Positions 3,424 to 18,429 of a stretch of 64,000 nt of DNA are shown here, one piece after another (the first letter of the stretch is position 1; every line of letters starts with the position of its first letter). The stretch spans positions 992,001-1,056,000 of the forward strand of contig OZ001293.3 in the NCBI GenBank assembly GCA_963921275.4. The letters are read 5' to 3'. Source of the DNA: an uncultured Hormoscilla sp. (GTDB lineage Bacteria > Cyanobacteriota > Cyanobacteriia > Cyanobacteriales > Desertifilaceae). Below the pieces are notes generated by a model. It was not told the origin of the DNA. It was given only the letters and a program-made list of their open reading frames with translations, and did not search any database. Position numbers and translations under genes: made by a program.

Positions 3424-3424
<1 letters not shown>

Positions 3425-4269
3425 TACATTACTTCTAGTTCCGCACCCGTCCCGTTTTCAATCTTTACTTGCACCTGAGATAGCTTAAGGCCAGCCCCTG
3501 CTTGGTTCTTGACATTGACTTTATTCGAGTCCACCTCTACTGCTGAGCCATCATTGCTTATTTTTATCCCTGATGAAGCTAATTTTACCTCTGACTTACC
3601 GTTCTTTAGCTGAATGCCATCCTGGGTAAAATCTGCCGTAGATGATTTTTTCTTCAATTTCATCCCCTCTGCCACCAGCTTCAACTCCCCCTCTTCCTTC
3701 TCCTTCAGTTGGATATGCTTAGCCGCAACATCCACTATTGTTTCCTGATTTTTAAACTCCAGCAACTCTTCTGTCATTTTTAACAGCGTTTCTTTATCGT
3801 TCTTGATTTCAATCCCCTCCTTATTTAACACCACTTTCAGCAACTTTTTCTCATTCTGGTTATCCTTTTTAGGCATTTTTACTTCCAATGTCACCCCTTC
3901 TTTTTGCTTTCGCCTACTCAAGATGAGAATGAGTTATTCGGTCTTAAAAACTTGAATCTCCGCTGGATCGTTATTTTGTTCGTAAGCCACCTCCGCCTCT
4001 TTAGGCAGTTCATCATCTCCCCAGAAACAGCCGGTCCAAATCGGGCGTTCTCGATTGCCGCCCTCAAATTCTACCCAGACCTTAGCGCCCTTTGGCGGGA
4101 TTGTAAACATCCCTACATCTTTGCCAGCGTATGGCACACAAGGCATGGCCCAGTTTTTGTTATCTGTGTCCAGAACCTCGGGCACGCTTACTTGCAGTCT
4201 GCCCAGCTTTTTGGGGTCTTGATTATTTTTGACTGTACCTCGATATTTTCCCAAAAATTCTTTTGTCAT
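3424..4269 (-). pseudogene. eCIS spike gp5/VgrG-like (OB fold plus beta-helix repeats), frameshifted near 3930
   Basis: FLGKYRGTV...DPKKLGRLQVSVP...WAMPCVPYAG...VWVEFEGG...PIWTG in 3934-4269, continuing in 3424-3921. Paralog of 8695-9510. Confidence 0.85.
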
Positions 4270-4376
4270 AGAACGCTGATTTTTTGTGGCCCAACCTGGG
4301 GTTCGTAGGACTTATCTCGCCTGTTCGGGAAAACCCTAGGACCGGTGCGGAGCGAGAGTATGGACATACTTAAGAG

Positions 4377-5273
4377 TAAGGCAGGCGATCGCCCTACCGC
4401 AGTCCGAAGTAGTCTAGCATAGGGAGCCTGTCGGGAGCAATAAACAAGTCTTTTTGCTCCTCCGACGAGCCCCGCCGGAAAATGCTAACCATATATTAGG
4501 GTATGCTCGCAGGATTGTCAACATCATTTCCCAAAAATTTCTATCAGAGAACCCTGATTTTTTCTAGCCCAACCTGCTTGCCCTTGTTGCTTGTCAATGT
4601 CATTGCCTGTTAGCACCTTCTCCATCACCGGCAGTATGTCCGAGTTGCCCAAATAATTTACTCTCTTATCCCGACATGCTCCCAGTAAGGCAGGCGATCG
4701 CCCTACCGCAGTCCGAAGTAGTCTAGCATAGGGAGCCTGTCGGGAGCAATAAACAAGTCTTTTTGCTCCTCCGACGAGCCCCGCCGGAAAATGCTAACCA
4801 TATATTAGGGTATGCTCGCAGGATTGTCAACATCATTTCCCAAAAATTTCTATCAGAGAACCCTGATTTTTTGTGGCCTAACCTGATTGCCCTTGTTGCT
4901 TGTCAATGTTATTGGTTGTTAGCACTGTCTACATCACCGGCAGTATGTCCGAGTTGCCCAAATACTTTACTCTCTTATCCAGAAATGCTCCCAGGCAGGC
5001 GATCGCCAACTCTCAAATCCTTTAGCCTGCCAGTAACAACGCTCCCAAAAAGGAGTTAACCATATATTAGAGCCTGCTCGCAGGATTGTCAACATCATTT
5101 CCCAAAAATTTCTATCAGAGAACCCTGATTTTTTCTAGCCCAACCTGCTTGCCCTTGTTGCTTGTCAATGTTATTGCCTGTTAGCACCCTCTCCATCACC
5201 GGCAGTATGTCCGAGTTGCCAAAATACTTTACTCTCTTATCCCGACATGTTCTCAGTCAGGCAGGCGATCGCC
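4377..5273. repeat. Tandem array of three ~215-bp repeats (about 4486-4702, 4795-5007, 5057-5273) separated by spacers
   Basis: The GCAGGCGATCGCC anchor recurs at 4381, 4690, 4995 and 5261. Spacers 4394-4485 and 4703-4794 are identical; 5008-5056 differs. Confidence 0.95.
4493..4521 (-). promoter_or_regulatory. sigma70-like promoter in repeat 1; copies at 4802-4830 and 5064-5092
   Basis: Minus strand reads TTGACA-N17-TAATAT in all three repeats. Confidence 0.7.
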
Positions 5274-5857
5274 AAACCTCGCCTTAAAGTTCGCTCTCCC
5301 CTGACGCTGCTTGCCTAATGGCTACATTCGGTGTTCCCCGTTCCCGTTCCCCGTTCAGTGTTCCCGGTTAAGCATTCCCCAAAATATCCAGAGTATTATT
5401 ACATGATACTGTGGGGTAATTGGGGGGTCTGACCCATTATCGATCTCAAGTATTGGCAACTGACAACTAACAACTACCGGCGTATACTCTTGTTAGGGGA
5501 GAAGCAATACTTCAAAGTTTTGGATATAGCTTGTCCGGAGCGAGGGAAGGATAATCGCGATTGTTGCACAACGACGGGATGACTTGCAACCACAGAATAC
5601 AGGCTGGTAGTGACCATGTACCAGAAAAATGACAACTGACAAATGACATTAGTCGAGCCGTAATGGCTCAGACCTACAAGCGTTAGTTTGTAGTGAGAGC
5701 GAAAGTTGTGCGCCAGGGGGAGCATGTCAAAGCAAGTAAATAAGTATTTTTGCGAAAAAACCTCATTACTGGCTCATTGGTCAAAACTTTGAGGTTCTTG
5801 AGAGCGATTGTCCGCACAACAGTTGCAAAACAAAAACGAAGCAGCCACACTACTCCC

Positions 5858-5915
5858 CCCACCCAAATCCCACCCAAATCCCACCCAAATCCCACCCAAA
5901 TCCCACCCAAATCCC
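5858..5915. repeat. 11-bp tandem repeat (CCCACCCAAAT) x5
   Basis: Directly visible in the sequence. Confidence 0.95.
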
Positions 5916-6579
5916 CTAAAATACGACATATAATCAGAAATATAGTCAAAAAAAGACTCTTGAAGAAAAATTTAGAGTTTTATCCAGAAGGCTCTCAAAG
6001 TAAGTATATTTTGCAATGTATCTCATAGATGCTAGCGGGCGATCGCTTTGATGCATGGGAGAGACGAGCGCCCTAACTCCCCTGCCGCCGGTGGTCCCCA
6101 TGCTTTGCAGATCGAGATGGAAGTAGAGATATGCTGAACACATAAAGGGAAAAAGGCGCTCTATTAAAATTTCGCGGGGTTGCACAATTACGGGACGATC
6201 GGGGCTGCTAATGGCCAATACTCAAAGGTTAATCTAGATAGTCATTGGTAGTCATGAATAGATGTATTTACTCTTTTAAACTAGCAATTAGCCAAAGTGC
6301 AATTTTCAACCATTGGCCGCTATCATCCCAAAAATGTGCAACGCCCGCGATTAATTTATGAGAAATTGAGGAGACCTCCCCGGCCTTCGCAGCGGCTGCG
6401 CAGCCAAAGCGCAATCTCCCGGCTCCCGGCTCTCCCAAAGCTTGGATGGGACAACTACCGGTCGATGTCCTAGTCACCAATATAACATTTTGTGACAATT
6501 ACCGAAAATTTGTAACAAGTCACCTTAGAGGAAGCGAATTCCGATAAAATAGATTGCAGTTAACTTACTCAAAGAATTA

Positions 6580-7212
6580 ATGAGTTCATTTCCCGGTTCG
6601 CCGCGTACCCTGAAGGGGGCAATAGCCTCGATCGACGCCTTGATACCGCTACCCAAGGTGATCGTGTTCCAATACAATCCAGAGACAATGACGCGGACAC
6701 TGACTTCCCGGATAGCCGGTTATGAAAACACTGAGGGAACGAAAATCAGCCAACCACCAGAAGAAACAATCAGTGTGAAAATCGAAATAGATGCCACGGA
6801 TCAACTAGAAAAGGCAGATGACACAGCAACCAGTCTAGGAATACACCCCCAGTTGGCAGCCTTAGAAACATTAATATATCCCATGAGCGTGGACGTAACT
6901 GCTCAGGAAGCACTGTTGCTAGCAGGAACTCTAGAGATATTGTCCAAAAGCCCGCCATTAACGGTGTTTATGTGGGGAGTAAAGCGGATAGTGCCAGTGC
7001 AGATCAAGAGTATGTCAATAGAAGAACAAGCATATGACGTAAATCTAAATCCGATCCGGTCAGAAGTTAGCCTAGAGATGCAAGTGCTCAGCTATAGCGA
7101 GTTTAAATTGTTAAGCGTGGGTGGTTCAATGTTTATGAGTCATCAGATCGCGAAGGAACTGATGGCGGTAATGAAAACTGTCAGCAGTGTCAGCAGTCTG
7201 GTGACTGGATAG
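6580..7212 (+). CDS. eCIS tube-initiator-like protein (Afp7/Pvc7 N-terminal type)
   Basis: SFPGSPRTLKGA...IVFQYNPETMTRTL...FMWG..RIVPV...EQAYD.NLNPIR motif, in eCIS context. Confidence 0.8.
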   Translation: MSSFPGSPRTLKGAIASIDALIPLPKVIVFQYNPETMTRTLTSRIAGYENTEGTKISQPPEETISVKIEIDATDQLEKADDTATSLGIHPQLAALETLIYPMSVDVTAQEALLLAGTLEILSKSPPLTVFMWGVKRIVPVQIKSMSIEEQAYDVNLNPIRSEVSLEMQVLSYSEFKLLSVGGSMFMSHQIAKELMAVMKTVSSVSSLVTG

Positions 7213-16040: not shown

Positions 16041-18429
16041 ATTAAACTAAGCCAGAGGGTCACCCCTCCGACTCGTCTCCAAAACCGGACTTGATACTTT
16101 CGCATCATCCGGCTCCTCAGTAACGCCACCCTTGTCATGGGTACGGCTGTGACTACCATCGCTGGCAGTCTTTATATCGTGGCAATGTTTGTGTAGTAAC
16201 TGTAGGTTGTCGTACTAGTTTTTACCCCCTAATGAGAGGGGCTTGATATGGTCAACTTCCCACTTGTCACCATCCATAAACGTTAATCCGCATTGTTGGC
16301 ACTTTCCTTTTTGTCTCTTGAGTAGCGTTGCTACCCTCTTATTTAGCTCGGGGCTTTTGCCTAATCTCGTACTCCAATATGTAAGGTTCCCGTCATATGG
16401 GCTTGCTGTACCTTTCACTTTTATGTGCCTGATTATCTCAGTTTCGGAGTGTCTGTACAGCGTTATTTCTTCCTCTCCTATTTGGCACCGGAATCGCCAT
16501 TTACCGTCCTCACTCAGGGACCAGTACTTACGAGCTATCCAATGACTGGATTTATTGGGATGTCTCCTTTTTGCCCACTGCCAGAGAATGGTCCATAGGT
16601 AGTGGTCCATGTAGCTGTATGTTTCTTTACTTACCACTGTCCTATAATAGTTTGACCATCCCCGTATTATCGGGTTTAGCTTACTTATTAAGGCTGCTTG
16701 TGGTGCTGCTTTATGGCTGGCCACCATTTCTGATAGCCGTTCTTTATGCTTCCCTATGGACTTATTACTGGGTTTGATTAGGGTTTTGAATCCTAGGGGT
16801 GTTCCGTTGGTTGACTTGCCGGTTCTGTATTTACCTATCTCATATTGCCTTACTTTGAAACCCAGGAAGTCAAACCCCGGGCTTTCTCCTTTTAGCGTAT
16901 GAGCTATTTTTGTCTTCTCGGCTTTCAATTCTAGCCCTATTCCCTTTAGCCATTCTGCCACCACTATCTGCGCTCTGTCTATCATTCCCCTATCTTCATG
17001 CATTACCACAAAGTCATCAGCATACCTGACTACTGTCAGCTTTTGCTTTTCTTTTTGTGTCCTGGCGAGTTCCTTTACTGCCTCCTCTAGTCCATGTAGG
17101 GCTATGTTGGCTAGTAGTGGTGATATGACTCCCCCTTGGGGTGTTCCCGCTTCGGTTGCATGCCATTCTCCTTTGTCTATCACCCCGGCTTTTAACCATG
17201 CCCGTATCTGCTTACGGATTGGTGACGTTGTATTTAATTTTTTTATTAGCGCTTTGTGGTCAATCTTATCGAAACATTTTGCAATATCGGCATCCAATAC
17301 CCACTTGGGTTTATATCTGATGCTGTTAAATATTGCCTTGATTGCATCGTGGCATCCCCGACCCGGTCTGAATCCATAGGAGTTCCCTTCCATGTACGCT
17401 TCCCATTCGGGTTCGAGCGCAATCTTGAAAAGTCCCTGTGTCGCACGGTCGTACATCGTTGGTATTCCTAAAGGACGCTTCTCCTCTCTCCCCGGCTTTG
17501 GTATCCATACACGACGTGTAGGTTTGGCCTTGTTTGAGATTTCAATCCGTCCTACCAGTTCTGAGCGTTGCTTTGGGGTCAGTGCTTTTACACCGTCCAC
17601 TCCCGCCGTCTTCTTTCCCTGGTTGTCTTGAGTTACCTGTCGTACCGCTAGACTTTTGGCAGCCCGGGATTTTACCAGTAACCTTTGGAGTCTGCGAACT
17701 GGTCGCTTATTACGCCTTCCATTGCCGCTCTGTAAATTCGCTTTTGCAACTTAAAGACTACCCGCTCCAGCCGAGGCCAGGGGGTATCCTTCCATTCATT
17801 CATCGATTCGGAAATCGTGCTCATGACCTGTGTATTGCTACTTACAACTTTACAATTAACGTTACCGTGAGGGCGTCTGCATATCCTATCCATTACAGAC
17901 AGGCGTTGGCTTCTCCTCAAAATCTTTCCCAGATACAACCTGCCTTCCGAAGAGCAGATGTTGCGCCTGTGGTGGCTACTCAACCTATCGACCGGTGGTT
18001 GAGAGTATGTACCTGGTTTACTTCGTTCCTCTAGATGATTGGTCGTAGTTTTAGGTGGACTCTATATGCCGGGTTTGTTGTCAGTGCTTATTGGTCGAAT
18101 TACAACCGCCAATGACCTGTATCCTTTCCCTTTTGGGCCAGCGTATCAGCCTTTTCGCTGGTTTGGTATAACGACACTTATGAGCCTTTGCTTTTGCTCA
18201 CCATGACTACTTGCTTGACGGTAACCGGTTTAAGCTGCCAGTTATTGCGCCTTCTCTCCCGCTTTACGGATTGATGCCATCGCTACCGTCGGAAGAGTGC
18301 TGTCACTCCTGCACCTGGAGGGGTGGGCTTTCACCACCATCATCTAAAAGTTGTCAGGGCTAATGGAACCCTGCTAGTGGTCCCCTTTCTTGACCTGTGT
18401 CAAGTCAGTTTACAATAAACAAATCGCAC
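16041..18429 (-). mobile_element. Full-length RT-encoding group II intron (~2.39 kb)
   Basis: 5' GTGCG at 18429. DV GAGCCGGATGATGCGAAAGTATCAAGTCCGGTT and 3' end ...TTAGTTTAAT at 16041. EBS1 TGTAAT pairs 6/6 with the 5' exon ATTACA. Confidence 0.92.
16130..17825 (-). pseudogene. ltrA: Group II intron reverse transcriptase/maturase with HNH endonuclease, frameshift near 17710 and TAG at 16215
   Basis: GTPQGGVISPLLANI, YADD, X domain, CQQC...VDHI.P...*YDNLQLLHKHCH. Confidence 0.9.

Follow-up and report, generated by a model that had tools for sequence, protein, structure and literature searches.

Genes of the locus

The stretch of DNA analysed here (the window, 64,000 nt; coordinates are window positions unless stated otherwise) comes from an uncultured Hormoscilla species (G000), a member of a genus of sponge-associated cyanobacteria, and carries a contractile injection system (CIS) locus organised as two divergent arms. 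Tube, LysM, gpD-like and spike B genes lie on one strand and spike A, gp25 and baseplate genes on the other, an arrangement common to the related genomes G001 and G003. To the left of the window, the minus arm includes Tail_P2_I, DUF6519, Pvc16_N, AAA ATPase and eCIS_core genes. A first-pass annotation of this DNA had named the gene downstream of the repeat array described below as a spike, and its match to PF04717 (E 2.3e-26) bears this out. Spike A is divided as follows:

3934..4269, minus strand: spike gene A, N-terminal OB domain (PF04717, E 2.3e-26), ending at a TAA at 3934-3936
3424..3933, minus strand: remainder of spike gene A, past the TAA and still in frame

The in-frame TAA occupies codon 112 (3934-3936, minus strand) and is strain-specific, the codon being GAA in G003, G001 and G004; contigs from sequencing runs X1, X2 and X4 cover 3800-4404 without differences. 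In G002, spike A is frameshifted near codon 23. Single in-frame stops also separate large ORFs of the minus arm, one pair of 133 and 308 aa (stop at 1501-1503) and another of 1158 and 1147 aa (outside the window on its left, near -4674 to -4676 on the same numbering). Since the spacing of tblastn matches suggests that the first of these boundaries lies at the same place in four relatives, the minus-arm stops are probably gene boundaries rather than breaks.

The same genome has a second CIS cluster (L021, at C1:4222001-4241000) that is colinear and apparently complete, with two sheath genes and gpD-like, spike, gp25 and large baseplate genes, whose proteins are only 21-36% identical to those of the window. 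The sheath family PF04984 matches L021 only, so no sheath gene is seen in the two-armed locus. An ORF at 16215-17600 (minus strand) with RVT_1, GIIM and HNH domains encodes a group II intron reverse transcriptase/maturase. A search for literature combining Hormoscilla with contractile injection found none.

A tandem array upstream of spike A

Three head-to-tail units of 309, 309 and 262 bp lie at 4375-5273. A repeat finder placed the copies in register at 4375, 4684 and 4946 (100, 96 and 70% in ungapped comparison), and TRF reported 2.0 copies with a period of 309 and 95% matches. In minus-strand order, the parts of a unit are a HIP1 box, a segment of ~110 nt (U), a segment termed g' (a copy of the final ~30 nt of the spike 5'-UTR and of the ~8 codons that follow, in which CTG replaces ATG), a fossil of spike coding sequence that contains a promoter-like site, and a leader, the "spacer" of the first-pass annotation. 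From the promoter-distal edge toward the gene, the features are:

5260-5273, unstranded: HIP1-containing box GGCAGGCGATCGCC, promoter-distal array edge
5148..5254, minus strand: unit 3 U, a duplicate of the spike gene's native upstream region, aligning with the G002 upstream region and the other units
5092..5147, minus strand: unit 3 g' (5'-UTR end and ~8 codons, ATG to CTG), by homology
5057..5096, minus strand: unit 3 fossil, spike codons 52-66 (z 4.6-5.7), containing the promoter-like site 5064-5092
5008..5057, minus strand: leader 3 ("spacer 3", 49 nt), unlike leaders 1 and 2
4994-5007, unstranded: HIP1 box GGCAGGCGATCGCC between units 3 and 2
4886..4992, minus strand: unit 2 U, by alignment
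4830..4885, minus strand: unit 2 g' (spike pseudo-start), by alignment
4781..4834, minus strand: unit 2 fossil, spike codons 52-70, identical to unit 1, with the site at 4802-4830
4703..4795, minus strand: leader 2 with hairpin, identical to leader 1
4689-4702, unstranded: HIP1 box GGCAGGCGATCGCC between units 2 and 1
4577..4683, minus strand: unit 1 U, by alignment
4521..4576, minus strand: unit 1 g' (pseudo-start), 85% identical to the gene start at 4241-4298
4472..4525, minus strand: unit 1 fossil, spike codons 52-70 (54 nt ungapped, z 6.2-7.6), with the site at 4493-4521
4394..4486, minus strand: leader 1, with the hairpin GUCGG-A-GGAGCAA...UUGCUCC-CGAC found by folding
4380-4393, unstranded: HIP1 box GGCAGGCGATCGCC nearest the spike gene
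4270..4374, minus strand: gene-proximal upstream region, a diverged fourth U copy that reaches the spike ATG

This layout agrees with much of what the first-pass annotation had described: three repeats each carry TTGACA-N17-TAATAT on the minus strand (4493-4521, 4802-4830 and 5064-5092), the HIP1-containing boxes said to bound the units are present at all four unit boundaries, and its statement that the array has no credible ORF is matched by our finding none common to all three units. It had also judged the array not to be CRISPR-like, and we concur. The repeat-spacer layout is a superficial likeness, but CRISPR arrays have short (about 23-50 bp) identical repeats, unique spacers and cas genes nearby, whereas here the units run to 262-309 bp, leaders 1 and 2 (two of the three "spacers") share one sequence, each unit has homology to the gene beside it and the neighbours are CIS genes.

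Between units 1 and 2 there are 13 differences in 309 positions, every one within 4564-4675, and leaders 1 and 2 (92/93 nt) are therefore identical. Across the 197-nt cores, unit 3 differs from unit 1 at 9 positions and from unit 2 at 17. The result is a mosaic: units 1 and 2 share the promoter part, leader and HIP1 box without a difference, their U segments account for the 13 mismatches, and the U of unit 1 is closer to that of unit 3 than to that of unit 2. Such mosaic identity points to ongoing recombination between the units.

Repeats of ~300 bp are longer than short reads, and no contig from any of four runs spans the whole array (those of run X5 covered 11/30 bins), which raises the question of whether a single copy was mis-assembled or falsely expanded. 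Against such an artefact, short-read unitigs from runs X1 and X2 contain the unit-specific junctions 4626-4713, 4843-4961 and 4935-5104 without differences, at depths of 1x in the flank, 2x in leader 1/2 and 3x in the core, although X1 and X2 may be the assembly's own source, so that this agreement is not independent support. Two copies are also present in the independent assemblies of G003 and G001, and we give an artefact almost no credence.

Short tandem repeats occur in the same intergenic region at 5333-5380, 5457-5476, 5627-5648 and 5858-5915, comprising heptamer runs and an 11-nt unit, CCCACCCAAAT, repeated 5.3 times without imperfection. The 1.3 kb that separate the array from the plus arm contain no ORF conserved in G003, and the small ORFs at 5474-6498 were rejected as genes because stops and frameshifts interrupt them in that species.

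Origin of the unit

A search of the 7.03-Mb genome with the unit, referred to as the module where genomes are compared, returned four matches, all at this locus. The first-pass annotation had proposed looking for more copies genome-wide, and none lies elsewhere. The fourth match is the start of the spike gene itself (52-58 nt at 4241-4298, 85%, E 2.5e-8), and this 58-nt stretch is the best-kept link between unit and gene (84-87%). In G002, which lacks the array, the sequence immediately before the spike gene is present once and aligns with U, and this identifies U as the gene's native upstream region. An alternative in which U is a fossil of the upstream gene was rejected, as comparison with the gpD-like 3' end that precedes spike B gave z -1.4 to 0.2.

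Directly behind g', 54 nt match spike A codons 52-70 without gaps at about 70% identity. Scored against the whole spike A genes of three species, the fossil was significant in 6/6 tests (z 4.6-7.6; 3000 dinucleotide shuffles per test, of which 0-6 reach the observed score), and with another scoring it was again significant against spike A in 8/8 tests (p 0.003-0.023), always from codons 52-53 onward, whereas 4/4 tests against the paralogue spike B lacked significance. Blastx recovered the same codon register (E 0.017-0.05 in a two-sequence search). Considered as a pseudogene fragment of the adjacent gene, the fossil thus has colinear, same-strand homology, while the PF04717 profile recognised none of the three translated fragments, which are short and decayed, at E up to 10. 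The leader tails, compared with spike A codons 64-140, showed no significant similarity (z -0.4 to 1.0).

Because the unit matches U, g' and codons 52-70 in turn, it is, as judged by alignment, a partial duplicate of the 5' region of the spike gene from which codons ~9-51 are missing. The start codon is lost in all module copies. This derivation of the repeat had been missed in the first-pass annotation.

Distribution and copy number

Of 61 genomes searched at the DNA level, five including G000 have the module: it is present in 4/4 other genomes of the genus, but in 0/9 genomes of other genera of the family and 0/47 of others of the order. Similar arrays beside the CIS loci of relatives, a possibility raised with the first-pass annotation, do occur, since all four other species of the genus have the module at the orthologous locus, and only there. 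Two metagenome pattern scans yielded no further module, and a scan of species-representative genomes returned only two relatives already known. A dispersed or MITE-like element was rejected, there being no copies elsewhere in the 7.03-Mb genome or in the relatives. Across the genomes searched, the module is therefore restricted to this locus and genus, with a copy number that varies:

G000: three promoter-bearing copies; spike A with nonsense codon
G003: two promoter-bearing copies; gene-proximal copy with a damaged -10 (TAATAC) and a 3-nt insertion
G001: two promoter-bearing copies, strongly diverged (TTGACG-N17-TAATAT and TTGACA-N17-TAAAAT)
G004: one promoter-bearing copy
G002: no promoter-bearing copy; leader tail, HIP1 box and U only; spike A frameshifted

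Two of these loci have additional features of their own. In G001 (L016, 4268-4546), ~41-nt tandem repeats in at least six copies lie between the promoter modules and the spike gene, and this array is absent from the window. In G002 (L017, about 3860-3960), the truncated module is immediately preceded by a G9/C8 hairpin (TTAACTGGGGGGGGG...CCCCCCCCAGTTAA) and unrelated sequence, with no plus arm within 4 kb; the hairpin region resembles the terminus of an element that was inserted or rearranged.

Several of these observations fit the main rival of the explanation that we favour below, namely that the array is a neutral relic, debris of partial tandem duplications from rearrangement of the CIS cluster, in which the promoter-like site arose by chance and is unused. 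The units do derive from the spike gene, with the start codon gone from every copy. Between species the copy number drifts, the -10 is damaged in one G003 copy, and the promoter part is gone entirely from G002. Neither G000 nor G002 has an intact spike A, and the nonsense codon in G000 implies that the arm may be decaying and that the array may be neutral in this strain. The conservation of the promoter-like site bears directly on this reading.

The promoter-like site

The exact string TTGACA-N17-TAATAT occurs three times in the 64 kb, where 0.01 are expected, the three occurrences being copies of one another. Each matches the sigma-70 consensus at 10/12 positions with a perfect -35, so that, taken as a sigma-70-type promoter, the site has near-consensus hexamers, separated by the expected 17 +/- 1 nt and lying on the same strand as the gene downstream. 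At the aligned stretch, the live gene reads TTTACA-N17-TAAGGT (Phe-Thr ... Ala-Lys-Val), which matches the consensus at 8/12. The coding sequence and the unit are separated by three changes, all toward consensus, which take the match from 8/12 to 10/12, a direction that speaks against a chance product of decay.

Hexamers and spacing are kept in 8/8 module copies from four species with at most one change each, as TTGAC(A/G), a 17-nt gap and TA(A)NA(T/C), although copies within one genome are homogenised by recombination and are not independent. When the two G001 copies were compared with unit 1 of G000, 22/24 hexamer positions were kept as against 15/34 positions between the hexamers (Fisher p 2e-4), in a test that was chosen after the alignment was seen and that concerns two copies from one species, the most diverged. 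At the level of these alignments, the hexamers are preferentially conserved over the bases between them, which would not be expected of a neutral relic. The three species with unbroken spike A (G001, G003 and G004) each keep at least one intact promoter copy, a second point at odds with neutrality.

A promoter is also required for the arm, and the stretch from 4493 to the spike ATG (4269) has no other promoter-like site on the minus strand to fill that role. Many cyanobacterial promoters have no -35 box, so a promoter could still lie within the gene-proximal 105 nt. Taken together, the evidence leads us to regard a neutral relic as unlikely, though it deserves to be weighed seriously. We infer instead that the site has promoter activity, with transcription starting near 4486 in the case of unit 1. 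One of the two interpretations offered by the first-pass annotation, a tandem promoter stack for the gp5-gp25-baseplate arm, fits this picture, given the 8/8 retention of hexamers and spacing and the lack of another site before the spike.

Leaders

The other interpretation, a cassette array of small RNAs with variable spacers, did not hold up. As the first-pass annotation had noted, spacers 1 and 2 are the same, the 92/93-nt leaders showing no differences, and spacer 3 is different (compared with leader 1, z 0.7, not significant). The hairpin that it described in leader 1/2 also exists (MFE -32.4 kcal/mol), if folding modestly better than shuffles (z -1.9; 7/200 shuffles fold as well), and leader 3 is unstructured (z +0.63). 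With two of three spacers being one sequence that is kept in sister species, the variable-cassette picture fails.

An array in the manner of NsiR1, in which the promoter of each unit makes its own small RNA and the leaders are functional RNAs, would account for the promoter-like site at the edge of every leader and for the hairpin of leader 1/2. Such RNAs would be expected to end within the unit, yet no terminator was found after leaders 1 and 2. The region has five terminator-like sites, compared with 3.0 +/- 1.8 in shuffles, but not one is positioned so as to terminate a leader RNA; the only candidates are the HIP1 palindrome adjoining the gene and, at +2 of leader 3, a weak stem of 5 pairs. 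An Rfam search of 3500-7000 at E up to 10 gave three chance-level matches (E 3.6-10), all to eukaryotic families, and so assigned the spacers to no RNA family. Across five homologous leaders from four species, none of five covariation measures for the hairpin rose above shuffles (140-197/500 reach the observed values), and the changes mostly break pairs; this decay without compensation is also what a neutral relic would show.

Nor do the leaders have counterparts elsewhere. Homologues of leader 1/2 are confined to the same locus in relatives, with the sequence present in two of them, and leader 3, compared with its own genome and four relatives, matches nothing except the HIP1 box. The spacer matches that the first-pass annotation had suggested seeking are thus absent outside the locus, and no similar or complementary target of the leaders was found elsewhere in the genome or in the four relatives. 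With the leader 3 fold and the modest z of the hairpin also against it, we consider independent small RNAs very unlikely.

A further possibility concerns the repeated U and g' segments, which in read-through transcripts could serve as decoys or attenuators that titrate a factor controlling how the spike mRNA is translated or how stable it is. Transcripts from the upstream units would carry one or two extra copies of the 5'-UTR end (~30 nt) and first codons, and the 58-nt stretch that would be involved is the best-kept part of the unit relative to the gene (84-87%). This idea is pure inference, with no known factor or binding motif; of the ~120 positions of U, 13 are not the same in units 1 and 2, and one species manages with a single unit. 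We rate it as highly improbable.

Proposed explanation

The explanation that we favour, with a probability of roughly 0.6, is that the array is a copy-number-variable, read-through promoter stack for the spike-gp25-baseplate arm, born from a pseudogene fragment. A partial tandem duplication would have left a dead copy of the spike 5' region as a ~300-bp module, and three changes would have turned the fossil coding TTTACA-N17-TAAGGT into TTGACA-N17-TAATAT. The resulting site may be the working promoter of the arm, which otherwise has no promoter-like site in front. Three units would then provide three tandem promoters, and since there is no terminator between units, each would read through the units downstream, producing a nested set of 5' leaders about 217, 526 and 788 nt long. 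On this view, the "spacers" would be transcribed leader sequence rather than cassettes, and unequal recombination between units would change the copy number.

A more ambitious version, a "promoter rheostat", would have the promoter of the orphaned arm, born in the dead copy, tune baseplate-arm output through a dosage of 0-3 copies that is set by HIP1-bounded recombination. The promoter would have been gained after the CIS cluster split into two arms, and a second level of control may come from the read-through leaders, in which the spike 5'-UTR is present in additional copies. We regard this extension as distinctly unlikely.

If the site is active, it would be a clean natural example of promoter birth from coding sequence, with the coding ancestor still in a live gene 250 bp away and only three changes apart. 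The new promoter would then have been amplified in tandem, with copy number differing between sister species, and the locus would show a rearrangement-orphaned operon fragment regaining expression. For CIS biology the array carries little weight, apart from marking where to seek the control region of the arm.

Comparison with known systems

Among cyanobacterial tandem arrays, the nearest counterpart is NsiR1, in which each repeat reportedly has its own promoter and terminator and gives a discrete ~60-nt sRNA, and which is said to be conserved in many species. In the account used here, NsiR1 of heterocystous cyanobacteria is a direct-repeat tandem array upstream of a protein gene (Ionescu et al. 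2010, cited in PMC6596454). The present array shares with it the tandem direct repeats upstream of a protein gene and a promoter or promoter-like site per repeat. It differs in that no terminators, no Rfam family and no structural covariation were found, and in that its units copy the 5' end of the neighbouring gene and are confined to one genus.

CIS clusters are common in cyanobacteria, and one, in Anabaena, has been studied (PMC8894136). The two loci are of the same class, with tube, LysM, spike, gp25, baseplate, Pvc16-like cap and AAA ATPase genes. The Anabaena cluster is described as one operon with a 400-bp region upstream of its first gene as putative promoter, whereas the Hormoscilla locus is divided into divergent arms, with a spike paralogue at the head or the end of each, and its minus arm has the repeat array as upstream region.

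The proposed origin of the site resembles the laboratory evolution experiments of Yona et al. 2018 (PMC5906472), in which random sequences in E. coli became promoters by one or a few changes. The likeness lies in the few point changes that turn a near-miss (8/12) into a strong sigma-70-like site (10/12); the difference is that this would be a case from nature, one that started from a dead, incomplete duplicate of the gene that the site now precedes and that was later multiplied in tandem. An active site would therefore complement the laboratory work on the ease with which promoters originate. The array is best seen as a variant of known phenomena and an evolutionary curiosity, not as a new kind of genetic system.
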